The position numbers and the translations under genes were made by a program. From NCBI GenBank assembly GCA_963849325.1, contig CAWKHF010000006.1, positions 736,001 through 800,000 of the forward strand: a stretch of 64,000 nucleotides of DNA. The letters are read 5' to 3'. The DNA is from an uncultured Planctomycetota bacterium. Lineage in GTDB: Bacteria; Planctomycetota; Planctomycetia; Gemmatales; Gemmataceae. The stretch's first letter is position 1. Every line of letters starts with the position of its first letter. The notes below the pieces were generated by a model. That model searched no databases, was not told where the DNA came from, and saw nothing but the letters and a program-made list of their open reading frames with translations. This document shows, piece by piece, positions 1 through 64,000 of this stretch.

Positions 1-1672
1 CGGCATCGCCGGTGAATACCAGTCCGCCGCCCGTGGCGAGCACTCCCGCAACCATCGGCGAGCGCGTGGCTACGTCCCATTTGATCTTGCCCGTCTTGAC
101 GTCAATGGCCTTCAGCGAGCCGGACGCCTGGTTATCGATTAACGTCAGCGAGCTGCCCCAATAGGGCTGCCCCTTGATGAAGAACGCCTTGCCGGAAGTG
201 AACTTGGCGCAGTTGTTGATGACCGGCACGTAGGCGAAGCCGGTGCCGGGGTGATAGGCCATCGGGTTCCACTCTTTGCCGCCGGCGGCGCCGGGGCAGA
301 CGCGCACACCCTTTTCGGTCGGCAGCGCGGCCGGGTTGACAAACGGCCGGCCTGTGTCCGGATCGAGTCCGTCCACGCCTTTCTTGCGGTCGGTCCAGGT
401 CACTTCGCAGAAGGGCTTGCCGTAGAGAAATTTGCCGGTTTCGCGGTTGAGACAATAAAAGTAGCCGTTGCGATGGGCCTGCACCAACGCCTTGATCCGC
501 TTGCCGTCCTTCTCGACATCGACCAACAGCGGTTCGTTGACGCCGTCATAATCCCAGACATCGTGAGGGCTGTTCTGGAAGTGCCACTTGTAGCTGCCGT
601 CGTCGGGGTTGAGGGCGAGGATGGAGCAGGTGTAGAGGTTGTCGCCTTTGCGCACGTCGCCGTTGAAGTCCGGCGAAGGATTGCCGATGCCCCAGTACAG
701 GGTGTTCAACTGGGGATCGTAAGTGCCCGTGACCCAGGCCGAACCGCCGCCGGTGAGCCACGATTGGCCCTGCCAACTGGCCAAGGCTTTTTGGGCGTGC
801 GCTGCCTTGTCGTTGGGACTGGGCACGGTCCAGAAACGCCATAGGCGTTTGCCGCTCTTGGCGTCATAGGCGTCGAGGAAGCCGCGGATGCCGTATTCCG
901 CACCGCTGATACCCATAATCACCTTGTCCTTGACCACCAGCGGAGCGACGGTGGCGCTGTAGGCCAATTTGTAAATGTCCTTGATCTCCTTGCCATCGTC
1001 GCCCGTAACCGTGATCGCCGTGTCCCAGATCTCCTCGCCGGTGTTGCGGTCGAGACAGACCAGATGGGCGTCGAGCGTGGTCATGTAGAGGCGCTCGCCC
1101 CAGGCGGCGAAGCCGCGGTTGACGGCGTCGCAGCACAGGGCCATGTTTTCGGGCAGCGATTTCTGGTAATGCCACAGCTGCGACCCGGTCTTGCAATCGA
1201 TGGCATAGGCATGGTTCCAGGGCGTCGTCACATACATAATGCCGTCGATGACCAACGGCGTGCATTCGAAGCCGTCGAGAACGCCCGTCTGAAACGACCA
1301 TTGGGGGATCAGGCGTGCCACGTTCTTTTTGTTGATTTGCTTCAGGGGGCTATAGCGATGGGCGTCATAGGTTCGGCCGTACATGAGCCAGTTGTCCTGG
1401 TTGTCCGCGGCGTGCAAGAGGTGATCCTGCGTGACGGCGCCGACGGGGCCTGCCGCTCCCTCGTCCGCCTTGGCCTTGGCCGATGGCGTATCGTCCTTGG
1501 CGGCGGGCTTCTCCCCCGCCTGCGACTTCTCGCTGGCCCGCGACTGCGGATCCGGTTCAGCAGCCGGCTCCTCAAGGGACCGCCCGCAGCCGATTGACGA
1601 GCAGACAAAAAGGAGTAAAGCAATCCAAGATAGTCCGCGCAGGAATACACGAGACGGTGAAGAGAGGTGCAT
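1..1672 (-). CDS. PQQ-dependent alcohol dehydrogenase (methanol/ethanol family), probable lipoprotein; runs off the window start
   Basis: Manual translation from ATG 1672: MHLSSPSRVFLRGLSWIALLLFVCSSIGC... then NWLMYGRTYDAHRYSPLKQIN, vicinal CC (ALCCDAVNRG), GISGAEYGIRGFLDAYD, LYWGIGNPSP, HDVWDYDGVNE, QAHRNGYFY. Absent from the ORF track because no stop lies in the window. Confidence 0.93.
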   Translation of the reverse strand, partial: MHLSSPSRVFLRGLSWIALLLFVCSSIGCGRSLEEPAAEPDPQSRASEKSQAGEKPAAKDDTPSAKAKADEGAAGPVGAVTQDHLLHAADNQDNWLMYGRTYDAHRYSPLKQINKKNVARLIPQWSFQTGVLDGFECTPLVIDGIMYVTTPWNHAYAIDCKTGSQLWHYQKSLPENMALCCDAVNRGFAAWGERLYMTTLDAHLVCLDRNTGEEIWDTAITVTGDDGKEIKDIYKLAYSATVAPLVVKDKVIMGISGAEYGIRGFLDAYDAKSGKRLWRFWTVPSPNDKAAHAQKALASWQGQSWLTGGGSAWVTGTYDPQLNTLYWGIGNPSPDFNGDVRKGDNLYTCSILALNPDDGSYKWHFQNSPHDVWDYDGVNEPLLVDVEKDGKRIKALVQAHRNGYFYCLNRETGKFLYGKPFCEVTWTDRKKGVDGLDPDTGRPFVNPAALPTEKGVRVCPGAAGGKEWNPMAYHPGTGFAYVPVINNCAKFTSGKAFFIKGQPYWGSSLTLIDNQASGSLKAIDVKTGKIKWDVATRSPMVAGVLATGGGLVFTGDA

Positions 1673-4520: not shown

Positions 4521-5232
4521 GGTCGTAAGCCTGCGTCAAGGCATCCAGCATGGCCCACAACACATCGCACTTGAATTCCAGGGCCGCGACGGCTTGCTGC
4601 TGCAATTCCGCCCTCGTGCAGTGAGCGAGGGTCACCTCCAAGGCGTGCGCCGCGTCCTGCCGGGCCTGCGTCAGTCGCGCCCGGAAGTAGGCCAGCCCCC
4701 AGGACGGCACCCAGGGATAATGCCGCTCGAAGGCGGCCAATCGCTCGCCCATCAGGTCGGGAGCGAACAGTTCGGTCAGCGAGGAGGCGACCGCGACGGG
4801 CCACGGCCGACACCGGGCGAACTGCACGTAGGCGTCCACGGCAAAGCGAACACCGGGCAGCAGCCGCCGCTCCTCCCATACCTCGTCTCTCGTCAGGCCC
4901 GTCGCCTCGGCCAGCCGGAGCCATGCCTCGATCCCCCCCTGCCCAGGCTCCGTCCCATCGTGATCGAGCAATCGGCGAACCCAGATGCGGCGCACCTCCG
5001 GCAAGGGGCAGTTCGACAGGATGGCCGCGTCCTTGATCGGGATGTTCCGCTGATAGTAGAAGCGATTGGCCACCCAGGCGCGGAGCTGGTCCGGGTTGAG
5101 TTCTCCGGAGTTCATGCGGCGATGGAACGGATGTTTGTCGTGGTATCGATCCTGGCCGACGGCCCGCAGCCGCGCCAGGAACGTCGATTGGTCCCATGAT
5201 CCCCCGCCGGTTGGTGCCTCGTGGGCCTTCAT
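4510..5232 (-). CDS. pqqC: Pyrroloquinoline-quinone synthase PqqC
   Basis: RYHDKHPFH, WVANRFYYQRNIPIKDAAILSNCP, RFAVDAYV, SSLTELFAP, FKCDVLWAMLDAL. Confidence 0.97.
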   Translation of the reverse strand: MKAHEAPTGGGSWDQSTFLARLRAVGQDRYHDKHPFHRRMNSGELNPDQLRAWVANRFYYQRNIPIKDAAILSNCPLPEVRRIWVRRLLDHDGTEPGQGGIEAWLRLAEATGLTRDEVWEERRLLPGVRFAVDAYVQFARCRPWPVAVASSLTELFAPDLMGERLAAFERHYPWVPSWGLAYFRARLTQARQDAAHALEVTLAHCTRAELQQQAVAALEFKCDVLWAMLDALTQAYDHAK

Positions 5233-21703: not shown

Positions 21704-21974
21704 AGGCGGATTTCCCCACTAGCCCGGACGCCCGGGCTAGTCGGGTGCAACCGATCAGCTTGAGCATTTGCGGAAAAACCCGAAAAACCGTCGATTAAGT
21801 GGTGGACAAGCCCAACAACGGCCGGTACAGTCGGAGCAATCACTAGGATTGATCGCCCGGGTAGGATGGCCCTCCAGGCCGGACCCCCAGGCGGTTACGC
21901 GCAGGGAGAACGTCCTTCGTGCGCACGGAACGGATGCCTGGCTTCTCCTCATTCCTCAACGTCGGAGGATGCCC

Positions 21975-24666
21975 ATGTTTCGCTATCGGTGGATTCACAA
22001 CCTCGCCGGCCTGAACGCGGACATCTGCCGCAAACGATCAACCAAAGCGCGTCGAGCAGTACGGCCACACCTGGAATCGTTGGAAGAACGGTTGGCCCCG
22101 GCCGTCTTCGATGTCAACAGCCTCACGGCGTTGCAGCAGGCCATCAATGCCGTCAACCTGCCCGGCTCGGACGCCTCCAACACCATCGTGCTGGCGCAGG
22201 GCAATTACAACCTGTCGAGTCAACTGTCGATCACCACGGGGCACAGCCTGGTCCTCCAGGGCCAGACCGGCAACGCGGCGAACGTGATCCTTGATGCCGG
22301 CGGCGCCAACAACCGCGCCTTCCTGCTCGGCGCCGGCACCAACGTCACCTTCCAGAACCTGACGATCCAGCACGGCACGGCGCACGACAACGGCATTGCA
22401 CCGAACACGGCGGCGGAGGGCGGCGCCATCCTCGACTGGGGCGGCAACGTCACGCTCAGCAACGTGGTGGTGCAGAACAATCAGGCCGTCGCCGGCGCCG
22501 GCCTGGCGGCCTGTGGCGGCGGCGTCTGGGTCTCGGGCGGGCAGCTCACCATCACGAATAACAGCGTCATCAAAAACAACCAGGCTCTCGGCGGCGGCGG
22601 ATTGAGCGGAGGCACCGGCGGAGCGGCGTCCGGCGGCGGTATCTACGCCGTCAACGACTCCGAGTTGAGCATCAGCGGCAAAAGTGTCGTCAGCGGCAAC
22701 ACAGCTCTGGGAGGCAACGGCGCCGCCGGCGCCAAAGGCATCTCCGCCGGCGCGGGCCAAAACGGCGGTGCCGCCTTCGGCGGCGGCGTATTTGTCTCCA
22801 ATGCCACCACGGCACTGACCCTGAGCCTCAGCGGGGCGACCCTGTCCGGCAACACGGCCAAGGGTGGTTCGGGTGGTCAAGGATTCGCCGGGACGCAGCG
22901 CCGTCGGCGGCCAGAAAACGGGCGGCGGCGGCACCGGCGGCAGCGTGGGTAGTGGCGGCCTGTTCCTCCTCGGTTTCGGAAGTGTCCAGATCGGATCTTC
23001 GAGCCTGTCCGGCAATTTCGCCATGGGCGGAGCGGGCGGCAGTGGCGGGCCGGGAGCGGCCGGCAGCAACGGCGGCCTTGGCGGCAACGGCGGCCTTACC
23101 GGCGGCGGCGGCCTGGAGGCCGTCGCCAGCGGCGGCACGCTCAACATCCAGATCAACTCCTCCTCCACGGTGCAGACCAACACGGTCACGGGAGGCGCCG
23201 GCGGTGCGGCCGGTGCCGGCGCCGGGGGGGGCACGGGCGGCATGGGCGGCGGCGTCGAAGGCGGCGGCGTCCTAACCGGCGCGTTGCCCGGCTCCAACGT
23301 CAAGCTCTCGATCACCAGTTCCACGGTCCAGGGTAACATCGCCACCGCCGGCAGCGGCGGCCTCGGCGGCGCTGCCTTCCTCGGCGGCGCCGGCAGCGGT
23401 GGCGGCGGCGGTTTCGCGGAGGGCGGCGGCGTGTTCTCCTTGGGCGGCGGCTCTTCGACCCTAACTCTTACGACCTCCACGGTGGCCAACAACGTCCTCA
23501 CCAGCGGCGGCGGCGGCCAGGGCGGCCAAGGCCCGACCGGCGCGACGGGCGGCACTGCCGGCTTCGCGTATGGCGGCGGCGTCTATGCCAGCGTCAATAG
23601 CACCTCCGGTAACAGCCTTTTCGCCTCGACCATCTCGGGCAACACCGTCACTGGCGGCATCGGCGGCATCGGCGGCACCGGCACCAGCGGTCCCCGCGGC
23701 GGTCTGGGCGGCACCGGCGGCACCGGCGGCGCCACTCGCGGCGATGGCGTCTATCTCCTCGGCGCCGGCCAGACCCAGTTCATCAACTCGACCCTCGCCT
23801 TCAACAAAGGCACGGCCGGCGCCGGCGGCGCCGGCGGCACGGGTGGCTCGGCGACCGTCAGCACAGCCGGTAACGGCGGCACCGGTGGCACCGGCGGCGC
23901 TTCCCTGGGCGGCGGCGTCTACGTCTCCGGCGCCGGCGGCGCCACTTTCATCAATGTTACCGTCGCCGACAACAAGGCCACGTCAAGCACCGGCGGCGCC
24001 GGCGGCAATCCGGGAGCACCTCCCGGGACCGGCGGCAAGGTCGGCTCGATCGGCGCACCGGGAGGCAGCGGCCTCAGCCAGGGCGGCGGCATCGACAACG
24101 CCGGCAGCAATGTTTTCCTCACCAATACGCTGGTGGCCCTCAACGTCGCCGCCTTCGCCACCGACTTCCTCGGCAGAGCCAACAACAGCGACCACGACTT
24201 GATCGGCGATACCACCGGCAGTTTCGGCTTCAGCACCGCTCACGGCGACATCGGCGGCGGCTTGGGCGGCGTCGCCATTCCGCTCAATCCCGGCCTGGCG
24301 TCGGCGCTGGCCAACAACGGCGGAACGACGCTGACCCTCGCTCTGCTGAGCGGCAGCCCGGCCATCGGCGGCGGCGACACCGCCGCCACGGCGTTCACCG
24401 GGCCGAACGACCAGCGCGGCACGGGCTTCGCTCGCAAGACCAACGGCAAAATCGACATCGGCGCCGTCCAATTCGGCCCGACACCAACACCGACGCCCAC
24501 ACCGACGCCCACACCGACGCCCACACCGACGCCGCACACCCGACACCCAGGTTCCCCGACGCCGACACCCACGCCCACACCGACGCCCACACCGACGCCA
24601 ACCCCGACACCGACGCCCACTCCAACTCCAACGCCAACACCTACTCCCCACGGCAACCACCCCTAA
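21975..24666 (+). CDS. Gly-rich surface protein with LEPR-XLL-type leader, beta-helix-like repeats, choice-of-anchor-Q-like domain and terminal PT repeats (frameshift near 22895)
   Basis: [14 protein letters not shown]; repeated N..xGGxGGxG...GGG units; [24 protein letters not shown]...DIGAVQ. Confidence 0.8.
24478..24648 (+). repeat. Coding hexamer microsatellite (Pro-Thr)n in two tracts
   Basis: ccgacaccaacaccgacgcccacaccgacgccc... interrupted by HTRHPGS. Confidence 0.9.
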
Positions 24667-37088: not shown

Positions 37089-40000
37089 TTACTCAAAATT
37101 GTATTGGCGAATTTCCTGATTGCCGTAGGCCCCACTTGTATCCACTTCGTGCGGCGCAGTGCGTGGCTGCCATCCGTCGGGAGCCGTGACTTGCGCATTC
37201 CCATCGTTGCTCCAAGCCAACGACGGGTTGATCTTACCGCTGCCGTTGAAGGCCCAGTTCATAAACGCCTCTGACCAGAAAGTGGAACTCCATGACGGGT
37301 TAACATCGGTGGTGGCCGTGATCTCCGTGAGGAAACTGTACGCTCCCTCAATGTAGGTCAGATAATTCCGTGCCACCTTGGGATCCTTCACCTGCACTGC
37401 TGACAACTGCTGGTAGGTCAACGGCACGTCAACGCTCGGAGTGTCCTGGACGCCTATCGTCTTGGAATTACCCGGAGGGGCCGTCGCATTGGAAAAACCG
37501 TTCGCGTAACCTCCCAGGCTCTGATAGTAGGGCGAGGACGTGTCGTCCCCCAGGTCCAGCATCGTATCCCCCTCCAGCGGGGATTTCAAAACCTTTCCGT
37601 TGTCATAATCGCCCTCCAATTTATTGATCGTCACGTGCTGGATGAAGCCTACACGCACCCAGCTCAAGGCGTTGGCATCGCGAGCGTTCAGAGTCACTGT
37701 CGCAAACCAGTACAAACCCGGCAGTTGGAGGAAAAATCGGCCCGTGGTGATCTGGTTGCCAGCAGCATCACCCGCCTGCCTACTGTTGACAGGAATCACC
37801 TTCGTGCTCGATTTCACCGATTTCATCAGGACATTTTTTTCCGTCGGCGTGAATTCGCCGTTGTCCGCCGGCGTGCCGACGAGGAACGGACTTCCGGCTT
37901 TCGCAAAGGTTACGCTGATCGCCGGCTTCCCATTCACTCGCACCGCTGTGGCCCCCGTGAGCCGCGTCGGCGACGTAACCACGACCTGCACAACGTTGAT
38001 AGTCGTCGCCCCACCCTCCACGTTTTTCCCACCCACTTTCAATTGGACGATCACCGTGGCAGGCTGGTTCTTGAAGACTAGGTTGACGGACGCCGTGCTG
38101 AGAACTCCATTGATATACGTCAAGCGCAGGGGGCCGGGTATCGCCACGTTCGTCGCCCCTCCCCCGGGCGTCGTGAACTGCAATGTTACATTTGGCTTGT
38201 CGCCCTCCTTGAAGTTGAAGCTCTCCAGCCCGCTCCATACGTACTTGTACTCCGAGTTGCCGGGGACAACGGACTTGCCGTCGATCGCAGCGCCACCAGG
38301 GTTCACGGCTAGTCCCATCCCAGCGCCCATCGCTGCCAGCAAGGTCGTGGACCATCCCTGGGACACTTCCACTTCGATGCGATACTCCCCCGCCGTCTGA
38401 TAGGTGTGGCTCCCCAGGACGCGGAACATACCGCCCGAACCCACGACCGTCGCACTCGTGTCCGGGGGCGTGCCGTCGCCCCAATCGATCATCGCATGGA
38501 ACTCGACGGACGTGTCACTGACATCCGGCTCCGTGAAGCTCGCCACCTCCATATTGCTGAAGGCCTCGCCCGGCTTCGCCTCCACCGAACCCACCACCAG
38601 CGACAACGGTGGACGCACCACCGTCACCTGCGTGCCGTACGTCAGCGTATCATTCTGCTCGCCGCCCCTGACCGTCACCGTCACCGAATAGACCCCGCCT
38701 GGCTGATCGATGCTGTCCATCGCATACTGGTGGCTGCCCTGCACGTAAAACGAACCATAGCCGCCCGCCACCGTGCCCTGGCTGGTGTTGCCGTCTCCCC
38801 AGTTGATCGAGGCCGTGAAGTCCGACGCCTGTACGTCCGGGTCCGGATCGCTGAAACTCGCCACCGTCAGGCTCGATGGCAGACCGGCATAGATATCGCC
38901 GACTACCACCGTACTCGCCGCCGACGCCTTCGACCCATCGGCATCCGTGACCGACACCGTCACCGCATACGTCCCCTTCAGGTTGTAGCTGTACGTGCCA
39001 CTGACGCCGAACAGACCATCCCCCAGGTCCGTGACCGTCGCCGGCATCGGGCCGCTGCCGTCGCCCCAATCGATCGCCGCCGTAAAGTCCGACGCCGTCG
39101 CATTCGGATTGCCGTCGGTGAACGTCGCCAGCGTCAAGGTCGCCGACTGCTGCTGGATGGCCCCCAACTCAAATCCGCCCGTCATCGACAATGGCGCGTC
39201 CGTCACCGTCGCCGTGCCGGCGGCCGTGGTGTTGTTGCCAATGCTATCGGTGAGGACCACACTCACCGGGTACTGGCCCGCCTCGGCATAGGTGTGATCG
39301 TCCGTCACCGTGAAACTGCCGTTGCCGCCGCTGACCGTTCCTGTATCCGTCGTGCCGTCGCCCCAGTCCACCGTGGCCGTGAAATCGCCGGCTTGGCTGC
39401 TCATGTCCGGGGTCGTGAACGTGGCCACGGTGATCGGGCCCGTGTCGTTGCCCTCCACGGCACTGATGGGTGTCGCCTGAGCGGTGATCGACGGGTCGTT
39501 GACGAGCCAATCGAGGGTTTGGCTGACGGACTGACCATTGCCATCACTGGCTGTCACCGTCACCACATAGGGTGTCGTACGCGCCGCATCGTTGGCGACG
39601 GTCCCCGAAATCTGGCCTGTGAACGGATCGATGTTCAGGCCATCGCGTAGTCCCGCCGCCGAATAGATCAAAGCATCGCCGTCCGGGTCGCTGGCCGTGA
39701 CGGCCAACGGCACGTTATCGCCTGCCACGTTGGTCTGTGTGCCCGGATTGGTCATGGTCAACGCCGTCGTATCAGTGTGGGTGACGGTCCAATTGAACGT
39801 CTGACTCGTGCTGTAGGCGCCGTCGCTGGCCGTCACCGTCACGACGTAGGGGTCGCCGCTGGAAGCGCCGGCCGCGATGGTGCCCGAGATCAAGCCCGTT
39901 GTGCTGTTGATGCTCAACCCCGACGGTAGACCATCCGCGCTGTAGGTCAGCGGCGCATCGAGCGCATCGCTGGCCGACACCTGCAACGAGACGTTGTCGC

Positions 40001-43000
40001 CCTCGTTGTTGTTCTGGTCCGCCGGGGCCGTCAGCGACACCACCGGATTGACGGTCCAAGTGAACTGCTGACTGGTGCTGACCGTACCGTTGCTGACCGC
40101 CACCGTCGTCGTGTACGGACCATCTGCCGCCGCGCCTGTCGCGATGACGCCGCTGATGAGGCCCGTCGTCGGATTGAGCGACAGACCATCCGGCAAGCCG
40201 CTGGCGCTGTAAGCCAGCGAATCGCTATCAGACACGCCTTGCAACTGCAATGACACGCTGTCGCCTTCCGTATTGGTCTGATCGGCCGGCACCGCCAACG
40301 CCACCGGACCCACCGTCCACAGGAACGTCTGGCTCGCGCTGTTGACGCTGTCGCTGACCGTCACCGTTACATTATAGGGACTATTCGTGTCCGCATTGGA
40401 AGCAATGGTGCCGGAGATCAGACCCGTGCTGCCGTTGATGCTCAAACCCGTCGGCAAACCCGTCGCCATCCACGTCACCGCATCGCCATCGGCATCGCCG
40501 CCCTGCACAGCCAGCGATACCGCCTGACCGTCCGCACTCGCTTGCGGCCCCGGATTGACCAGCGACAAGTGCGTCACTACCCAGGCGAACGACTGACTGA
40601 CGCTGGCGACGCCATCGCTGGTCGTCACCGTCACGTTGTAGGGACTGCTGGCATCCGCTCCCACAGCGATTGTACCACTAATCAGGCCCGTACTGCTATC
40701 GATAGTCAGACCCGGCGGCAGGCCGTAGGCGCTGTACGTCAGCGTACCGTTGGCGGCGTCGCTGGCCGAAACTGGCAACGACACCGCATCACCCACGGCG
40801 TTGCTCGGGTCGATGGGGTCCAGCGACAGACGCGGACTGACCGTCCAGTTGAACGTCTGACTGGCACTATCGGTCTCATCCGAAGCCGTCACCGTCACCT
40901 GATAGGGACTATTCGTATCCGCCGTGTTGTCGATGTTGCCGCTGATCTGGCCGCTGCTGGGGTCGATGTTCAATCCCGGCGGCAGGCCGGTGGCGCTGTA
41001 GCTGAGCGTGCCGCTGCCGTGGTAACTCGTGGTCAACGGCAGCGACACCGTGTCGCCATCGAGATTGCTCGGATCGCCCGGCGATACCAGGTTGATCGCC
41101 GACACCGTCCAGGTGAAGGTCTGGCTGCTGCTGGACGTACCATCGGATGCCCTGACCGTCACCGTGTACGGCGTACTGGTGGCGGCGTCGGCGGCCACGG
41201 TGCCGGAGAGCAGGCCCGTGCTGCTGTTGAGGCTGAGGCCATCGGGAAGGCCGCTGGCGCTGTAGCTCATGGTGCCGCCCGGCGAAGTCGCCGACAGTTG
41301 CAGCGAAACGTTATCGCCGGTGGCGTTGCTCTGGCTGCCGGGATTGACCAAGGCCACGCGCGGCGTCACCGTCCACACGAACGACTGGCTCGACGTGGCG
41401 CCGCCGTCCGTGGCCGTCACCGTCACCTGATAGGGACTGCTGCCATAGGAGCCGATGCCGACGGTGCCCGAGATCAAGCCCGTCGCCGCGTTGAGGCTCA
41501 GACCGGCCGGCAGTCCCGTCGCGCTGTACGTGGGCGTGCCGCCGACATCGGTGGCGTTCAGTTGCAGCGACACGGCCGTACCTTCCTGGCTCTCCTGATC
41601 GGCCGGCGCTCAGGGCCAGCTTGGCGATGGTCCAGGTGAACGACTGGCTGGCGCTGGAAGTGCCATCGCTGGCCGTCACGGTCACGGCATACGGACTATT
41701 CGTATCCGCCGTGCCGCTCAGGTTGCCGCTGATGAGTCCGCTGCTGCTGTTGATACTCAGCCCCGGCGGCAGGCCGGTGGCGCTGTAGGTCAGCGGCAGT
41801 CCGCTGGCATCACTGCCCCATAGGGACAGCGACACGGCATCGCCATCGACGTTGCTCTGATCGCCCGGATTGCTCAGCCCCACGGAGTTGACGGTCCACG
41901 AGAACGTCTGACTGCTGCTGGCCTGGCCATCGGAGGCCATGACCGTGACCGTGTACGGCGTGGCACTGGCGGCGGAGTTAGGTAAGGTGCCGGAGAGGAA
42001 GCCGCTGGACGGGTCGATGCTCAGGCCGGGCGGCAGTCCGTTGGCCGTGTAGGTGAGGTTATCGCTGTCAGCGTCGTTGGCGGACAGCGACAGCGACACG
42101 TCATCGCCGGCGGTGTTGGTCTGATCGCCGGGGTTGCTGAGGATGGGAGCGACGTTGGCCGGGCTGATGGTCCAGTTGAAGTTCTGACTGACGCTCTGGT
42201 TGTTGGACTCATCGGTAGCGGTGACGGTGACGGCGTAGGGCGTGCCCAGCGCCGAACTGGGATCGACGGTGCCGGAGATGAGACCGCTGTCGCTGTCGAT
42301 GCTCAGTCCGGGCGGCAGGTTGCTGGCGTCGTAGACCAGCGCGTCGCCGTCGGTCTGCGTGGCATTGACCGGCACGCTGACGTTGTCGCCACGGAGGTTG
42401 GTTTGATCGCCGGGGTTGGTCAAGACGGGAGCGGCGTTGGCGGAGTTGATGGTCCAGTTGAAGGAAGTCGTGGTGCTGCCGCCCTGGCCGTTGGCGATGG
42501 TGATGGTCGGGTTGTAGCTGCCGTCGAAGTCGGCAGAGGCGTCGTTGGCGATGGTGCCGGAGATCAGTCCGGTGCTGCTGTTGATGCTCAGTCCGAGCGG
42601 CAGACCGATGGCGTCGAAGGTGAGCGGATCGTTGTTGGGGTCGCTGGCCTGGATTTGCAGCGAGACGCTGTCGCCCTCGGTGCTGGTTTGAGAGCCGGGG
42701 CTGCTGGTGACGGAGGGCGACGCGACAGGCGTCTGCGTCCAGGTGGGGGTTGGTCCTTGCCAGGTGGGCGGGGCGTCGTCTTCCTTGATGGCGACCGTGG
42801 TGGTGTTGGGGTCGCCCAGGGTGGCGTTGCTGGGGTTGCTGAGGGACAGGGTGAACGACTGGATGTCGGCTTCGCCCTTGCCGTCGTCATCGAGAAGGGG
42901 GATGTTGATGTCCTGTACGGTCGTGCCGGGATCGAAGGTCAAGGTGCCGCTGACCGGCTGGTAATCGGTGCCGGCGAGGGCCGAGCCGTCGTTGCTGGCA

Positions 43001-44613
43001 TACTGCACGGTCACGGTCTGACTGGAGGCGGTGTTGAGGGTCACGTCCACGCCCACACTGCCATCGGTTTCGCCGACGTTGGTGGTGGGGCTGGCGAACT
43101 GGACCGTCATCGGCGTAACGCTGGCCGTGCCCGTGACCGTCGTTTGGCTGCCGCCCGCATCGGTGATGGCCGCGCTGATGGGGTAAGAGCCGACGGCGGC
43201 GTAGGTGTGATTGCCATAGATGTTGAAGAGGCTATCGTTGCCGTAGGGATCGTAGCCGCCCGAGAGGGTGCCCGGCGAAGTCTGTCCGTCGCCCCAGTTG
43301 ATCTGGACGGTGTAATCGCTGGCGGTGGCGAGGGGGTTGGCATCATCGAAGTAGCCGACCGGCCCGCTGTAGGGCAGGCCGGCGTACATCGAGAAGGTCT
43401 CGCCGGACTGCGGTGTCAGGACGGCGTTGCTGACGACGGCCGTGTCCGAGGCGGTGAAGATGCCGCCGGGTCCGCTGACGCTGACGGAGATGGGGTAGGT
43501 GCCTTCGTCGTCATAGGTCATGCTGTCAAACACAGAAATGGAATTGGTGGTGACCGTGGGATAGTCGGTCGTGGTTTGGCCGTTGCCCCAAGTGACGGTG
43601 GCGGTGTACTGGTCGTTGGGATTGCCGTCGGGATTGCCGAAAGAGGCCAGCGGCACGTCATAGTTGTAGGCCCCTTCGACGAAGTTGAAGGACGGCGACG
43701 GGTCGTCGGCCGGCGTCATGTCGTTGCCGGCGGGTCTGTCGGCGGTGGCAGCCGGCTGGTTCGGGCTGGCCATCGCATGAGGGGCGATCATCGTGGTCAG
43801 GGGAGCGGCGGGCGCTCCGTTCGGGACGGCCGCCGTCAGCGCCGGACCATTGAAGGCGCCGCGGATGCCCAGGGCGGTCAACTCGTTGGCGGCGCCGTTG
43901 CCTCCGCCTCCGCCGCCTCCACCACCGCCGCCCCCCAGCGAGCCGCCCGTCGAGGTGCCGCCCACCCCCGTGCCCATGCCGGTCAGGCTGTTCGCTCCAC
44001 CGGCAGCCGGCCCGTTCTTGGTCGGCGTGTCGGCGGAGTGATACTTGGGCTGCGCGCCGTTCGTCAACGCTGGATCGACCAGCGGATCCGCCGGGGCATG
44101 AGTCGCGGCAGCCCGCGCATCGAGACCGGAAGCATTCGTCTTGCCCACGTCGGAGGATGACGGCGGCTCGGCCGGCGCAAGTGTGTCCGTCTGAGCCAGG
44201 TAGCGGCTGGCGTCCACCGAGGAGGAGGGATGCGCTGCTGCGTGGAGGAAGAGGGCATCGGTCAGGGCGGCGTCTGGGTCGGCCGGCGTCCGACCGGCGC
44301 TCTCCGTCGTCGTGGCGGAATGGTCGTCCGCCGCCGGCGTGGGATGCGAGGGAGCGGTCCGAGCCGTATCGGCGACCTGAACCAGAGCGGTCTGGGCCAG
44401 TAACCCCTCCACGCCCATATTGGTCGGTGATTCGATCTCTTCCAACCGCTCCAGACAGAGGGCAGAGGAACGCGGGCGGCGGAGGCGCGGCAGCACTTCC
44501 CGGCCGCGCAGGACACGTGCGGGTTTGAGCCAAGCGAGCAAACTCTTCCAAGTCGTCGAGAGCCAAGCAGGCGGACAAACCTTGATGCGGAGAGGACGCT
44601 TCCACCGCAGCAT
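37089..44613 (-). CDS. Giant (~2500 aa) exported Ig-repeat protein: leader, low-complexity linker, 2 PKD-like, Calx-beta, 12 He_PIG, 4 PKD-like, variable C-terminal domain; frameshift near 41605
   Basis: ORFs 41311-44613 and 37089-41573 join as ...KLALSA(P)ADQESQEGTAVSLQL; Calx-beta DGSALAGTDYQPVSGTLTFDPG; repeated GLPxGL and WGDG motifs. Confidence 0.88.
38352..42379. repeat. 4.0-kb direct repeat, copy A
   Basis: Colinear with 31576-35603. Confidence 0.92.
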
Positions 44614-48536: not shown

Positions 48537-50720
48537 TCAGAACGGCAGCGTCATATCGAACTGGAACACGGCCATCTCATACTCGAACTCGGCGAACATC
48601 AGGTTGGCGAAGGCGTTCAACCGTCCCGTCGGCGACGCGAAGGCGGACAGCGCGAAGACGTATTGCGACGTCAGCAGGTTGGTCAGGGCGTTCTCCATGG
48701 TGTTGAACTGCACGTTGACGGTGCTGGTATCGGCCTGATACATGGGAATGAGCGGCGGGATGGCCGGCTTGCCGGCCACGTTCACGCCCGTCTGCACCGT
48801 GACCGAGGCGCCGCCGACGTCCGTGATGACCACCCGCACGACAAAGCTGCCGCTGGTGGCGTAGCTGAACGGGTTGCTGCCGTAGACGCCGAAGGTGTTG
48901 TTGCCCAGCGCCACGATGGTGCCGGTGGAGCTGCCGAACGCTCCGCCCGCCTGCTCGAAGAAGACCGTCGCCGTGTAGTTGCTCGGACTTTCCGGCGTCG
49001 TATCGGTGTCCTGGAAGGTCGCCACCAGGGCGTTGGCCAGGAACGATCCCGTCGCGGAGGTAAGGGGAGGCTGCGGCGAGGCGACCAACGGTGCGTCGGC
49101 CACGTTGATCGGGCCGCTGACCGTGCGCGATTTGCCTTGCCCCGGCTGGGATACGTTGACGGTGAGCGTGTAATTGCCCTCTTCCGAGTAGGTGTGACTG
49201 CCCAGGACCGTGTAGTTTTCCCCTCCGGAATTCACGACCGTACCGGCGGAACTGCTGCCATCGCCCCAGTAGATGGTGGCCGCGTAAGTGCCCGTGGCGT
49301 TGCTCTGGCCGTGGAAGACCGCCACGGGCACGTTCGTCAAGGGCTGTCCTTCCGTGGCGTTGTGCAGCGTGATCGAGACGTTCAGGCCGATCAGGTCGGG
49401 GATGAGCAGGTTGGCGGCCGGACTGCCCAGCCCGGTGACTTCATCGTAGCCCGGACCAGCCGAGAAGGCGCCGTTGTTGCCCGTGGTGATGTCGTGGAAA
49501 TCGCCGGGGTTCGATTGATACAGTTCGTAGAGGTCGGGGAGGGTCTGGGTGGCGCCATCCAGGGTGGTTCCCCCATTCTGAACCAAACCCTCGTCGGCGA
49601 TGGAGATGAGGGCAGCCCAGCTGGGCGACGCCAGGCTCGTTCCGCCGATGATGTTCCAGGGCGTGGCGGCGCCGTTGGTGAAGGAGTCGTAAACCCACAC
49701 ACCGGTATTGGGATCGGCGAGGAAAGCGACGTCCGGGATCGTCCGCTTGCCGGTCTTCTGTACGCTCTCCTGGTAGGCCGGTTCGTTCTCGAACTGGCTG
49801 ATGCCGCCGCCGCTGCCGCCCAGCGTTGAACTCTGCGCACCGTTCCCCCAGCCCGTTTCGCTTTTGTAGGTGTTGTTGGGGTTGAGCGTCAGGGCCGTGC
49901 CGCCGACCGCGATGACATTGGGAGAGTAGGCCGGGTAGCCTCCGGGAGAGCCGTTATCGCCGGTCGAGGCCAGGAACGTCACGGGGTTGTGGCCAGGCGG
50001 TGTCTGGAACGTCGTATCACTACCTTGTTCCCCGGCGAATTCGTTGCCGCCAAAGCTCATGGACACCACGGACACGCCGGGGGTGCCGGCGGCGGTGGCG
50101 ACGGCCGCGTACAGATTGGCGTTGCTGGCGTCGTTGGCCTCGAAGAGGATGATGTTGGCTCCGGGGGCGAGAGAGTGCGCCCATTCCACATCCAGAGCCT
50201 CCTCCCCTTCCCAACCTTTGGCCGGATCGGGGCCGGGCAGCGCACCCGTGCCGGTCTGACCCAGCTTGAGGAAACTGGGCGGATCGGGCAGGCCGTACTG
50301 CACGTCAAATTGGTGCAGGTCGCTGGTGTTGAAGGCGGGGTTGGTGCTGTCGAGCAAGTTGGGATCGTCGTAGGCATCCACGAGGGCGATGGTCTGGCCG
50401 GCGCCGTCGCCGATAATGCCGAAGAGTTGGTCGATCCCGTAGGCCGTTTGCACCTGCTGGGGACTGAAGCCCACCGGCCCCGTCGGGGTCGGGAACTGAA
50501 AGGGCTGATTGCCCGACGGGTGATAGACCACGTAGTCCGGGGTAGCGACCGACGGATCCACGCTCGGCAGCGTCGCGCTCAGCAGGGTCCGGTCCTCCAG
50601 CGCTTCCAACCTCAGGCGCGGAGGGCGATAGGATCCGCGCCTTGGCCGGGGAAGCCGCCGGGGCTGTCGAGACGAGGGGAACGTCCGCTGGAGCCAATTT
50701 CGCCAGAAAAGAATAAACAT
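48537..50720 (-). CDS. Sedolisin-like S53 serine peptidase with LEPR-XLL leader and PKD-like domains
   Basis: RLRLEALEDRTLLS; EEALDVEW, STGDNG, PDVAFLADP, GGTSLASP, GYDEVTGLGSP. Confidence 0.9.
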   Translation of the reverse strand: MFILFWRNWLQRTFPSSRQPRRLPRPRRGSYRPPRLRLEALEDRTLLSATLPSVDPSVATPDYVVYHPSGNQPFQFPTPTGPVGFSPQQVQTAYGIDQLFGIIGDGAGQTIALVDAYDDPNLLDSTNPAFNTSDLHQFDVQYGLPDPPSFLKLGQTGTGALPGPDPAKGWEGEEALDVEWAHSLAPGANIILFEANDASNANLYAAVATAAGTPGVSVVSMSFGGNEFAGEQGSDTTFQTPPGHNPVTFLASTGDNGSPGGYPAYSPNVIAVGGTALTLNPNNTYKSETGWGNGAQSSTLGGSGGGISQFENEPAYQESVQKTGKRTIPDVAFLADPNTGVWVYDSFTNGAATPWNIIGGTSLASPSWAALISIADEGLVQNGGTTLDGATQTLPDLYELYQSNPGDFHDITTGNNGAFSAGPGYDEVTGLGSPAANLLIPDLIGLNVSITLHNATEGQPLTNVPVAVFHGQSNATGTYAATIYWGDGSSSAGTVVNSGGENYTVLGSHTYSEEGNYTLTVNVSQPGQGKSRTVSGPINVADAPLVASPQPPLTSATGSFLANALVATFQDTDTTPESPSNYTATVFFEQAGGAFGSSTGTIVALGNNTFGVYGSNPFSYATSGSFVVRVVITDVGGASVTVQTGVNVAGKPAIPPLIPMYQADTSTVNVQFNTMENALTNLLTSQYVFALSAFASPTGRLNAFANLMFAEFEYEMAVFQFDMTLPF

Positions 50721-60889: not shown

Positions 60890-61264
60890 TACTTCAGTCC
60901 CCCGCCAAAATGGAACAACTCGGGCCACGAATCCCCCAACGGCCGTCCGCGAATGCGGACGGAACGTGGCCCCCTCGTGCAATCGTCCTCTGCTCTCGAA
61001 CCGTCGTTGTTGCGTGTGCCGCGGCGCGAACGGACTCGTTCGGAATGGACAAGCGTCGGCGGCAAAAACCGGAATCTTCCCCGATCATAAGAGGTTTTTC
61101 GCCGCGTGCAACTGAATAACGGTTGCGATTCTGTTTTCTCCCATTTTTTCCTTGACGCGCTCGCCAGGTGAGACTACCTTACTTCTTCGTTAGCATTTTC
61201 TCATTTACTTCCAGACCGTTGACACGAGAGATTCCGTCGTTTATCGCCCGCGAGGATCGCACCT

Positions 61265-64000
61265 ATGATGCGCTGGAAGCACTCGATCCGCATCGATCTC
61301 TGTCCGCCGGAATGGCTCGCCAACGCCTGGGCTACCCTGCGCGGCTGGCTCAAAGACTCGCGCGTTCTCTCACGCCGCGACTTCGGGCCGCCCCGGCCAT
61401 GGCGACGCCGCGTCTACCTCGAAGTGGAAGCGCTCGAATTAAGACTGCTGCCCGCAGTTGACTTGTCCCAGTTCATCTCCACTTTCAACGCAGGAAACAC
61501 GCTGCCTATCTTGGCGGTTGCTTCCGCTTACCCGGCTCACGGCAGCACAGCCGGTCCTGGTCAGGATGACCTGAACACGAGCGGCACCCCCACGCCGAGT
61601 GTCCACAACGCCTTCCCGGGCGATAACGCTATCGACGAATCCTCTACCCGAAACGTAGGATCTGACGTTCCGCAACGCCCCCAAGAACAGCTTGGGCGAC
61701 CCGAGCACAGTCCCCATCGAAATCCAGGAAGACAACCAGATCCTACACCGACGACTACCCCAACGCCGATCACGCCTCAGGTTATAGGCCCGCACGCTAA
61801 GCTGCCTCCGAATTACGTCACCGGCCCCAGTTGCAACTGCGGTTGCCCTGACGAACCGGGCAGCACGGTGCAGTCAGCCGCGAATACCAACGCCACGACG
61901 AGTTCCGCCTCCTCCAGCGGAGCGACCGGCGGCAATGGTCCCGTCTACACACCCGGCGGCGGAGGCACGGGCGGGGTCGCTGTCCAAACAACGCCCCAGG
62001 TTGAGACCCCCTACCCTGTGCGCTTCGCCGACGGCACGGTGAACATTGCCGAGACCGACCTGCACTCCGACGCTTTCGGCTTCGCCTGGGGACAGACACG
62101 CTCCTGGAGCAACGGTCCCGGCTACGCCACCGGCTCCGACAACGGCAACGGCTGGGTCGATACCTACACGCCGCATCTCATCCAGGCCGGCGGCTGGGCT
62201 CCCAACAATACCCTCGCCGTCATCGCCAACGGCACCACCGCCTACTACTTCGACCTCCAGGACGACGGCAGCTACCAGGGACGATTCAGCGATCCCGCCA
62301 AGCTAACCGTCAACAGCAGCAACGACACCTACACGCTGACTGACGGCCAGGGCGATCAGATCGTCTTCGACGGCTTCGGCTCCAGTTGGCTGCCCGCCCA
62401 GAAGGGCCAGATGCAAAGCTACACCGACGCCAACGGCATCACCCTGGCCGTCACGTCTTACACCGCCGACGGCCACATCGCCGAGATGCAGCGTTCGGGC
62501 ACCAGCAACGGCAACACCGTCACCGAATCGTGGCTGTACAGTTACCTACCCTCGACCGACGCCAACGCCGGCCTGCTCCAGAGCGTCACCCTGCGACAGC
62601 AGACCAACGGCGGCGCCTGGACCACCGTGCAGCAGGTCCAGTACACCTACTACGACGGCAGCCAGCAGTACGGCGGCAGCCTCGGCGACTTGATGACCGC
62701 CACCGTACTCGATGGCAATAACAACGTCCTGTCCACCAGTTACTACCGCTACTACACGGCGGGGCAGGCCAACGGCTACGCCGGCGGTCTGGAGTACGTC
62801 TTCAATCCCGCCTCCTACACTCGACTGACCGCCGCTCTGGGCACCGACCTCGGCGACCTCACCGACGCGCAGGTGGCCCCCTTCGCCGACAACTATTTCC
62901 AGTACGACAGCCAGCAGCGCGTCATCCAGGAAGTAGCGCAAGGCGCGGGCGACTCGCAGACGGCCGGCGGCCTGGGTACCTACACCTTCAGCTACACCGC
63001 CAGCAACAACGCTCCCGGCTACAACAGTTGGGCAACCAAGACGGTCGTCACCAATCCCGACGGTAGTACGGACACGGTCTATACCAACGCCTACGGCCAG
63101 ACCATGCTCATCGATCACTACGATCCGATCAGCGGTCTGGATACCGATAACTTCTATGCCTACAACGATCAGGGCCAACTCATCCTGCAAGCGGCACCGT
63201 CGGCCGTCACCGGCTATGACGACAGCTACGCCGACCTGCTGAACAACGATCAGTATCTCAACAGCAACAGCGGCCTGATTACGCGCTACGACTATTACAC
63301 GACGACCACGGCGACGGAGACGACGGCGGGCGGCGTGGCCGGCTACCTGGAAGACAAGCAGATCCAGCAGGGGCAGCAAGGCGCGCTCGTACCGCAAGAG
63401 ACCTGGCAGTATTACGCCCACGCTTACGGTGGTCAGACCGTCGCGCCCATCGCCACCGACACCGTGTATCGCAACAGCGATGGCACCGGTGCCGAGACGA
63501 CTTCCTACGCTTACACCTGGTATAGCGGCACGGCCGAGATGCAGTCGGAGACGGTCAGCGCCCCAGTCATCTCGTCGGCCCAGAATGGTCCGGGCACGGC
63601 CGACGTGACCACGACCGTCTTCGATACCAACGGCAACCCCATCTGGGTGCAAGATCCCGACGGTTACATCCAGTACTTCGCCTACGATCCGCTGACGGGG
63701 GCGTTGGTCACGAGTATCGCCGACGTGAACACGGCGGACACGAGTGAATTCACGAACCTGCCGACGGGCTGGACGACGCCGACGGGCGGCGGCCTGAACC
63801 TGGTGACGCAGTATCAGGTGGACGACCGGGGACGGACCACGAAAGAGACCTCGCCCGATGGCAACATCACCTACTACGTCTATCTCGACGCCCAGCACGA
63901 AGAGCGCATCTACCAGGGCTGGAACGCCAGCAGCGGCATGCCCACCGGGCCTACCGAGGTCATCCGCGAAGACGCCGCCGACGGCTACGACGAAGTCTTC
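61265..64000 (+). CDS. RHS/YD-repeat protein, 3'-truncated by the window end
   Basis: Frame from ATG 61265 stays in register with the window end; DUF6531-like PVRFADGTV...WGQTRSWSN...GNGW; YD units YFQYDSQQRVIQE, YAYNDQGQL, FDTNGNPIWVQDPDG, YQVDDRGRTTKETSPDG; missing from the ORF track (no stop). Confidence 0.9.
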   Translation, partial: MMRWKHSIRIDLCPPEWLANAWATLRGWLKDSRVLSRRDFGPPRPWRRRVYLEVEALELRLLPAVDLSQFISTFNAGNTLPILAVASAYPAHGSTAGPGQDDLNTSGTPTPSVHNAFPGDNAIDESSTRNVGSDVPQRPQEQLGRPEHSPHRNPGRQPDPTPTTTPTPITPQVIGPHAKLPPNYVTGPSCNCGCPDEPGSTVQSAANTNATTSSASSSGATGGNGPVYTPGGGGTGGVAVQTTPQVETPYPVRFADGTVNIAETDLHSDAFGFAWGQTRSWSNGPGYATGSDNGNGWVDTYTPHLIQAGGWAPNNTLAVIANGTTAYYFDLQDDGSYQGRFSDPAKLTVNSSNDTYTLTDGQGDQIVFDGFGSSWLPAQKGQMQSYTDANGITLAVTSYTADGHIAEMQRSGTSNGNTVTESWLYSYLPSTDANAGLLQSVTLRQQTNGGAWTTVQQVQYTYYDGSQQYGGSLGDLMTATVLDGNNNVLSTSYYRYYTAGQANGYAGGLEYVFNPASYTRLTAALGTDLGDLTDAQVAPFADNYFQYDSQQRVIQEVAQGAGDSQTAGGLGTYTFSYTASNNAPGYNSWATKTVVTNPDGSTDTVYTNAYGQTMLIDHYDPISGLDTDNFYAYNDQGQLILQAAPSAVTGYDDSYADLLNNDQYLNSNSGLITRYDYYTTTTATETTAGGVAGYLEDKQIQQGQQGALVPQETWQYYAHAYGGQTVAPIATDTVYRNSDGTGAETTSYAYTWYSGTAEMQSETVSAPVISSAQNGPGTADVTTTVFDTNGNPIWVQDPDGYIQYFAYDPLTGALVTSIADVNTADTSEFTNLPTGWTTPTGGGLNLVTQYQVDDRGRTTKETSPDGNITYYVYLDAQHEERIYQGWNASSGMPTGPTEVIREDAADGYDEVF

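Follow-up and report, generated by a model that had tools for sequence, protein, structure and literature searches.

The question raised by this locus is why two giant proteins begin with the same N-terminal leader of about 63 amino acids. The window, meaning the whole 64,000-nucleotide stretch of DNA that was analysed (C6:736001-800000), is part of an 8.16-Mb planctomycete genome with 14 contigs and 65% G+C. The two genes are RHS1, which encodes an RHS-repeat protein, and gene A, which encodes a giant with Ig-type He_PIG repeats and is also called the Ig gene below. The original prediction, made from the letters of the window, was that the shared leader is a dedicated export or targeting signal for large toxin-like proteins. 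The explanation that we favour, and regard as probable, is that a known planctomycete cell-surface leader occurs here in a longer, lineage-restricted variant, that this variant has been spread by module shuffling, and that it would serve as an export tag.

Under this explanation, the last two thirds of the 63-residue N-terminus, which contain a W/L-rich amphipathic start, an Arg-rich tract and the box L-E-x-x-E-x-R-x-x-P, would represent the ordinary L.LE.LE.R..P leader that some 60 further large proteins of this genome appear to carry. The first ~20 residues (M-x-R-W-K-R-x-x-R-I-x-x-x-P-x-x-W-L) would be a rare, lineage-restricted add-on that lengthens the variable segment before the box. The leader would have reached the RHS toxin-type gene and the Ig giant by mosaic recombination, and not through independent recruitment by unrelated proteins. 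It probably acts as a non-Sec-type N-terminal tag that carries its cargo to the surface or outside, wherein the LE.LE.R..P box is a putative recognition or processing site and the extension presumably has no separate sorting role.

Translation of the two leader intervals yields exactly the two peptides on which the prediction was based. Their gapless likeness, counted by hand as 20/38 identities in the first part and 27/63 overall, is confirmed by BLASTP (21/42 identities, no gaps, E-value 1e-14) and by MAFFT (40% identity over 67 columns). A hidden Markov model (HMM) built from the two leaders was run without any filter over the complete set of 107,907 six-frame open reading frames (ORFs) of the genome. 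It finds RHS1 and gene A with E-values of 1e-34 and 2e-32, respectively, and a third copy in a gene termed RHS2 (E 9e-18), and the next-best match (E 0.013) is off-frame within an ABC-type ORF. There are only two matches to a three-leader profile among 1.84 billion representatives in a library clustered at 50% identity, namely P0007 (289 residues, matched over residues 1-66) and P0008 (92 residues, matched over residues 6-65). A collection of 5.8 billion proteins added P0009 (134 residues), and in the length range of 1224-3896 residues it returned RHS1 itself and nothing else. These three foreign proteins are all truncated and all run on into the same PKD-like module, and the alignment of P0007 with RHS2 begins at residue 1 and extends across the PKD-like pair (E 7e-36). 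Further matches had been anticipated at N-termini, and this is where they lie, as all six strong matches begin at residue 1-6.

Judged by sequence, the ordinary leader of this genome accounts for residues ~21-66, and only residues 1-20 (M.RWKR..RI...P..WL) are special. A filtered regular-expression census for [LVIFMC]E.[LVIFM]E.[RKI]..[PLVT] close to the start and behind a basic tract found 66 ORFs, including the three genes, and the remaining 63 probably include some false ones. The distance from Met to box among these 63 ordinary candidates is 20-40 residues in 51 and only longer in 2, one of them a giant of 3265 residues with a distance of 59, and there is no Met in 10. The corresponding distance is 52-53 residues in the three genes. 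A profile made from the 63 other leaders, with the three genes left out, aligns with residues ~21-66 of the extended leaders, including the WLK, the Arg-rich tract and LE.LE.R..P. At a Z of 107,907, the number of genome ORFs, its E-values are 2e-5 for P0009, 3e-5 for P0008, 9e-5 for P0007 and 2e-4 for RHS1; the match is weak (0.26) for a protein from a same-genus genome, G007. The L.LE.LE.R..P/L box behind the Arg-rich tract reads LEVEALELRLLP in RHS1 and LEIEFLEARLVP in RHS2, and the Ig gene has only LERLEEIESP, which lacks the Arg. The claim that the RWK.. extension is absent from the two other LE.LE.R leaders in the window is correct, and neither of these is matched by the leader HMM.

Elsewhere in the genome (C5:131,000-161,000), about ten tandem paralogues carry near-identical ordinary leaders (MFRNEWLRKF...). 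Therefore, leader subtypes follow gene families in this genome.

There is one published description of this class. A literature search on LEPR-XLL, Planc_extracel/PF07595 and the motif strings found PMC8567305 as the sole relevant paper. As given in the available text of that paper, LxLExLExRxxP occurs in 52 genes of Tuwongella immobilis, including those for 8 of its 10 longest proteins, and the authors, following Studholme et al. 2004, describe the motif as a presumed new export signal at the N-terminus. The form reported there for Rhodopirellula, citing the same 2004 study, is RRLxxExLExRxLLA. Thus, the part of the original prediction that made the extended leader a dedicated signal for toxin-like proteins is not supported, because residues ~21-66 already form an ordinary leader of a class that has been described as a presumed export signal. 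What stands of the prediction is a putative export or targeting leader in a broader sense, as the peptide is translated, strictly N-terminal, free of a hydrophobic core and attached to cargo of extracellular type.

The two window genes are connected because the third gene, RHS2, is a mosaic of both. From its start, it is made up of leader, spacer and the PKD-like pair that the Ig gene has as well; a PT linker and a CNCGCP motif then lead to an RHS body resembling that of RHS1. By blastn, RHS1 and RHS2 are 80.6% identical over a 278-nucleotide block that spans positions -119 to +159 about the ATG, and 84.6% identical over 4989 nucleotides of the body. RHS2 and the Ig gene are 79.6% identical over the 632-nucleotide PKD-like pair (61% at the amino acid level), and there is no blastn match between RHS1 and the Ig gene. 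The earlier statement that the bodies are unrelated is therefore accurate for the window pair but does not extend to RHS2, which combines the Ig gene's PKD-like pair with the RHS body. All carriers of the extension are, on the evidence of these shared modules, members of one recombining mosaic family assembled from the leader, the PKD-like pair and an RHS or He_PIG body. The expected enrichment of the leader on RHS and Ig proteins is seen among the carriers, but it is not independent because all of them are pieces of this one family.

Since the -119 to +159 block is common to RHS1 and RHS2, the duplication took in the promoter or 5' untranslated region (UTR). The upstream block has no other occurrence in the genome. 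A sigma-70 promoter scan gave no site upstream of RHS1 and a single site upstream of gene A, located on the strand opposite the gene. The sequence TTGAC is visible by eye in the RHS1/RHS2 upstream block, and this is an observation only.

The 119 upstream nucleotides are roughly as similar between RHS1 and RHS2 as the leader itself, which is what would be seen if the similarity were untranslated DNA from a duplicated 5' region and the true starts lay downstream. We consider this very improbable. In both window ORFs, the ATG is the first ATG, GTG or TTG past an upstream in-frame stop codon, and a public protein collection contains the 2226-residue RHS1 entry with exactly this start, which agrees with the starts as first assigned. 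Three foreign gene calls also start at the aligned Met. The Ig gene keeps the peptide pattern without detectable nucleotide similarity, and no stop codon breaks the leader frame in any copy. Nei-Gojobori counts of synonymous divergence (dS) and of the nonsynonymous to synonymous ratio (dN/dS) give a dS of 0.45 and a dN/dS of 0.46 for the RHS1/RHS2 leader (62 codons), compared with a dS of 0.38-0.63 and a dN/dS of 0.13-0.23 for the body. For RHS2 and the Ig gene, the values are 0.90 and 0.58 for the leader and 0.43 and 0.63 for the PKD-like pair. The ratios are below 1, and the leader is coding and less constrained than the RHS body. A downstream start would also strip cargo of extracellular type of any signal. 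The histories of the leader and of the PKD-like module next to it seem to differ, with few sites available in the leader.

The 20-residue extension is far rarer than the ordinary leader. Among the 15-24 best candidates scored per genome, strong extended-leader matches are absent from 40 relatives, from a phylum-wide sample of 400 genomes and from 251 family genomes. Weak matches to the extended profile are found in 25 of the 251 family genomes (25-31 bits), where they cover model positions ~13-66 and translate as ordinary leaders. The exception is in the same-genus genome (G007:C3), in which model positions 3-62 are matched with 29 bits. The carrier is a protein of 2171 residues with 12 He_PIG, cadherin and PKD domains. 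Its body is 64% identical to that of gene A, and its leader is much more diverged from gene A than the body is. Searches of genome contigs with P0009 gave no match and with P0008 gave a single spurious match of 13 residues in a cyanobacterium; a search of metagenome contigs with P0007 gave two PKD-like proteins, both lacking the leader. An internal duplication was considered as a source of the extension and rejected: an offset of 24 stands out, but its score is reached by 360 of 2000 column shuffles.

The extension is likewise not tied to RHS cargo in related genomes. RHS-body homologues are found in 42 of 121 family genomes, this genome (G000) included, and 19 such loci outside G000 were inspected. 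The N-terminus is not reached in six of these, and two are orphan-like fragments. An ordinary LE.LE.R or LEPLEPR box is present in 10 of the 11 captured N-termini, and one locus has 128 upstream residues and no box. Model positions 1-24 of the extended profile are matched in 0 of the 19 loci. One locus (L044) carries an ordinary leader, the PKD-like module and the RHS body, which is the layout of RHS2 without the extension. Because the family homologues bear the ordinary box and none of the 19 loci matches the extension, the extension is predicted to be dispensable for RHS cargo. This again speaks against a dedicated toxin signal.

These observations also bear on the idea that the 20 residues are a second address label, sending a subclass of large toxins and adhesins to a dedicated machine or destination apart from the ordinary LE.LE.R route. 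Such a label would account for the retention of M..W.R..RI...P..W[LF] in five sequences that are 30-64% identical and, weakly, in the same-genus He_PIG giant. It would also fit the strictly N-terminal matches and the fact that both full-length RHS genes of this genome bear the extension. However, the carriers share modules and thus descent, the dN/dS of the leader (0.46-0.68) is above that of the body, and the family RHS-body homologues use the ordinary leader, one of them in the same leader/PKD-like/RHS layout. Furthermore, housekeeping genes, a Ser/Thr kinase, a DDE transposase and orphan RHS pieces surround the three genes; 2-oxoacid:ferredoxin oxidoreductase subunits, a PMT_2-type glycosyltransferase and a zinc-ribbon ORF are also encoded there. 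No secretion genes flank any of the three genes, so the co-occurrence with one secretion machinery that had been expected is not found next to them. A second address label is therefore unlikely.

Regarding function, the statement that the leader is not a Sec or Tat signal is borne out by its residue composition. It lacks both a lipobox with a conserved Cys and a hydrophobic h-region of some 7-15 uncharged residues, as Sec and (behind an RR motif) Tat signals have. Uncharged runs reach 9-11 residues at most, with a net charge of +6 to +11, and the best 12-residue Kyte-Doolittle mean is 0.8-1.0. An AlphaFold2 model of the first 112 residues, made without an alignment, has a mean predicted local distance difference test (pLDDT) score of 52 and is unusable. 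The missing hydrophobic core and the uninformative model leave room for a leader that is not an export signal, either as an intracellular pro-piece (chaperone-binding, autoinhibitory or for membrane association) or on proteins that are cell-associated by another route. Moreover, export of the whole class is only presumed, as the available text of PMC8567305 has the motif 'thought to represent' a signal. This alternative is nonetheless improbable. The cargo domains (He_PIG, Calx-beta, cadherin, PKD-like and RHS) are of extracellular types, and the same text reports that, of 20 Tuwongella motif proteins detected by proteomics, 8 were in the sodium dodecyl sulphate (SDS)-soluble fraction only and that its authors deem the motif-bearing proteins likely surface-exposed.

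In addition, a 750-residue metagenomic protein from another organism (L034, 577-2829, + strand) has a classical hydrophobic signal peptide followed by two copies of the PKD-like 'DWGDG...HTY...G.Y' module. By analogy, this layout supports an extracellular fate for the cargo, with the leader occupying what would be the position of a signal peptide. There is no Pfam match to the PKD-like module in P0007, the sole carrier of the module that was scanned.

Several known systems resemble the leader in part. It shares with Planc_extracel (PF07595; LxLExLExRxxP) an N-terminal site, an LE.LE.R..P box preceded by an Arg-rich tract, the lack of a hydrophobic core and an association with the largest surface-type proteins. 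It differs from that class in that the leaders of the three genes are longer by ~20 residues at the N-terminus, with a conserved pattern particular to these, the Pfam model misses the three leaders and the Ig-gene box lacks Arg. The LEPR-XLL model NF012209 (LEPR-8K, 24 positions) likewise describes a short N-terminal box on giant planctomycete proteins, but the box here is LE.LE.R..P and not LEPR.LL. Signal peptides of the Sec, Tat and lipoprotein types are similar in being N-terminal with a positive start, and in their position, which in the related PKD-like protein equals that of the leader. They differ in that uncharged hydrophobic stretches of the leader do not exceed 9-11 residues and that it has no lipobox. 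Finally, the trafficking domains of polymorphic RHS toxins described in the available text of PMC3482391 (PAAR with type VI secretion (T6SS), LXG/WXG, TPS and others) are also modular N-terminal pieces that precede RHS repeats in proteins with variable tips and orphan pieces. The leader discussed here, in contrast, is a general planctomycete one that is not specific to toxins. A Pfam scan of RHS1 and RHS2 found RHS_repeat only, with no PAAR or other known trafficking domain.

Some findings weigh against a longer variant of the known surface leader. The own-genome leader profile matches RHS2 weakly (E 0.087) and does not recover the Ig gene (E 3.3), in which the box has no Arg. The suggested likeness to LEPR-XLL/Planc_extracel is only partly borne out: residues ~21-66 fit the profile made from this genome, but PF07595 and NF012209 give no match at E<=1 on the three leaders, either in the proteins or in a genome scan. 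The two curated models weakly match other proteins of this genome. No genome match attains the PF07595 gathering cut-off of 25.5 bits, the best being 18.9 bits, and the three leaders do not reach the curated NF012209 cut-off of 17 bits. In addition, we infer the export function of the leader from its position, from the type of cargo and from published fractionation in a relative. The carriers of the extension counted here are a lower bound on its true occurrence, as the library clustered at 50% identity can conceal leaders and did not return RHS1 itself, and as scoring in the genome searches was confined to the 15-24 best candidates per genome. Lastly, M1, R9, P14 and W17 are invariant in all five extension sequences, which come from proteins that are otherwise 30-40% identical. 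This conservation hints at some constraint of the extension's own.

Taken alone, a rare and lineage-restricted length variant of a catalogued leader is a modest discovery. How planctomycete giants are exported without a classical signal peptide has been a question since 2004, and this finding does not solve it. RHS toxin-type proteins of the family routinely use the same leader, and the leader behaves as a freely shuffled module. There is also a natural contrast, in that related RHS cargo carries the extended leader here and the ordinary leader in related genomes. It is quite doubtful that the extension is a second sorting determinant that steers a small polymorphic toxin/adhesin family towards one specific export machine or cell pole, or into one mode of delivery. 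If this were true, the three genes and their RHS relatives with ordinary leaders would be a natural pair for tracing the export pathway.

Table. Coordinates of the features under discussion (window positions unless prefixed with the contig, C6).
Feature	Position	Strand	Remarks
RHS1 extended leader	61265..61453	+	residues 1-20 are the extension (MMRWKHSIRIDLCPPEWLAN)
RHS1 leader, residues ~21-63			ordinary pre-box segment, Arg tract and LEVEALELRLLP box
RHS1 gene	61265..64000, beyond the window to C6:803945	+	2226 residues; RHS/YD repeats, Gly-rich C-terminal tip
Block upstream of RHS1	61146..61264	+	non-coding; shared with RHS2 alone
Extended leader of gene A (Ig/He_PIG giant)	44425..44613	-	degenerate box LERLEEIESP, I replaces R
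PKD-like module pair, gene A residues 245-500	43114..43881	-	also in RHS2 and in foreign leader-bearing fragments
Gene A, first frame	41311..44613	-	leader, low-complexity spacer, PKD-like pair, Calx-beta, 4 He_PIG
Gene A, continuing frame past the frameshift	37089..41573	-	8 He_PIG, cadherin, PKD domains, own C-terminal region
RHS2 gene	C6:604840-610986	-	2049 residues in first frame
Ordinary LE.LE.R leader, 727-residue protein	50571..50720	-	MFILFWRNWLQRTF...LRLEALEDRTLLS; comparison case within the window
Ordinary LE.LE.R leader, second comparison case	21969..22106	+	within the window

Although no secretion genes adjoin the three genes, candidate export loci exist elsewhere in the genome. 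The available text of PMC4452313 describes a secondary SecA-like gene together with genes resembling those of type I secretion systems (T1SS). A second SecA-like gene is present in this genome at C1:~106-108 kb, and its surroundings showed neither an HlyD nor an M50 domain. There are two HlyD-M50 cassettes, at C1:520-522.6 kb (520,141-522,588) and C7:168.8-173.2 kb (168,838-173,247), wherein genes for HlyD-type adaptors adjoin genes for M50 peptidases; in one case M50 and HlyD are fused, and a WD40 gene is the neighbour. At C1:495-511 kb, some 10-25 kb from the C1 cassette, there are five genes with ordinary leaders, a proximity noted as an observation. No SecA-like or HlyD-M50 locus lies near the three genes and no link to them is established.

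RHS sequence in this genome is confined to the RHS1 locus and to the RHS2 locus with its downstream orphan pieces. RHS1 and RHS2 have the layout of RHS/YD polymorphic toxins, namely RHS repeats (PF05593 matches), a conserved core end, a variable tip and orphan fragments. The RHS module of both genes is opened by a Cys-rich GPSCNCGCP(D/N)(E/Q)PGS motif that stands behind Pro/Thr-rich linkers, at window positions 61,850-61,900 (residues ~196-210) in RHS1 and at residues ~385-400 in RHS2. The tips past the common core end are unrelated. That of RHS1 (L002:7965-8945) is Gly-rich with repeated DWGRID motifs and that of RHS2 (L001:4158-5177) is extremely Pro-rich, and there is no Pfam match in either tip.

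Two orphan RHS fragments are located downstream of RHS2 (C6:594,353-603,249, partly L001:1-3204). They start in mid-core, lack a leader and are 86-89% identical to RHS1 over their best matches. A 255-residue ORF with a weak retropepsin-like match sits between them and RHS2. Orphan fragments next to RHS2 are the usual arrangement of displaced RHS tips. Directly 3' of RHS1 is an ORF for a 161-residue double-zinc-ribbon protein (L002:9113-9598, +), which is at the position expected for an immunity gene, and the DDE transposase is also downstream of RHS1 (L002:9678-11051, -).

The reading frame of gene A slips near 41,600. Frame changes are also found in the RHS2 tip (L001 ~5,100-5,180, which goes on in L001:4158-5177) and at window positions 22,860-22,950, and the second SecA-like gene is likewise broken over three frames (L031 9,900-12,000). 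Marker-gene completeness is 84.7% despite only 14 contigs. Together, the frame changes in long genes and this low completeness suggest, tentatively, that the assembly is rich in indels and that the genes are not true pseudogenes.

The C-terminal region of gene A (window 37,089-38,600, -) is unlike that of its same-genus He_PIG homologue (L030, G007:C3), whose final region has a HEFGH (zincin-like) motif. Ig-repeat giants may therefore also bear variable tips.

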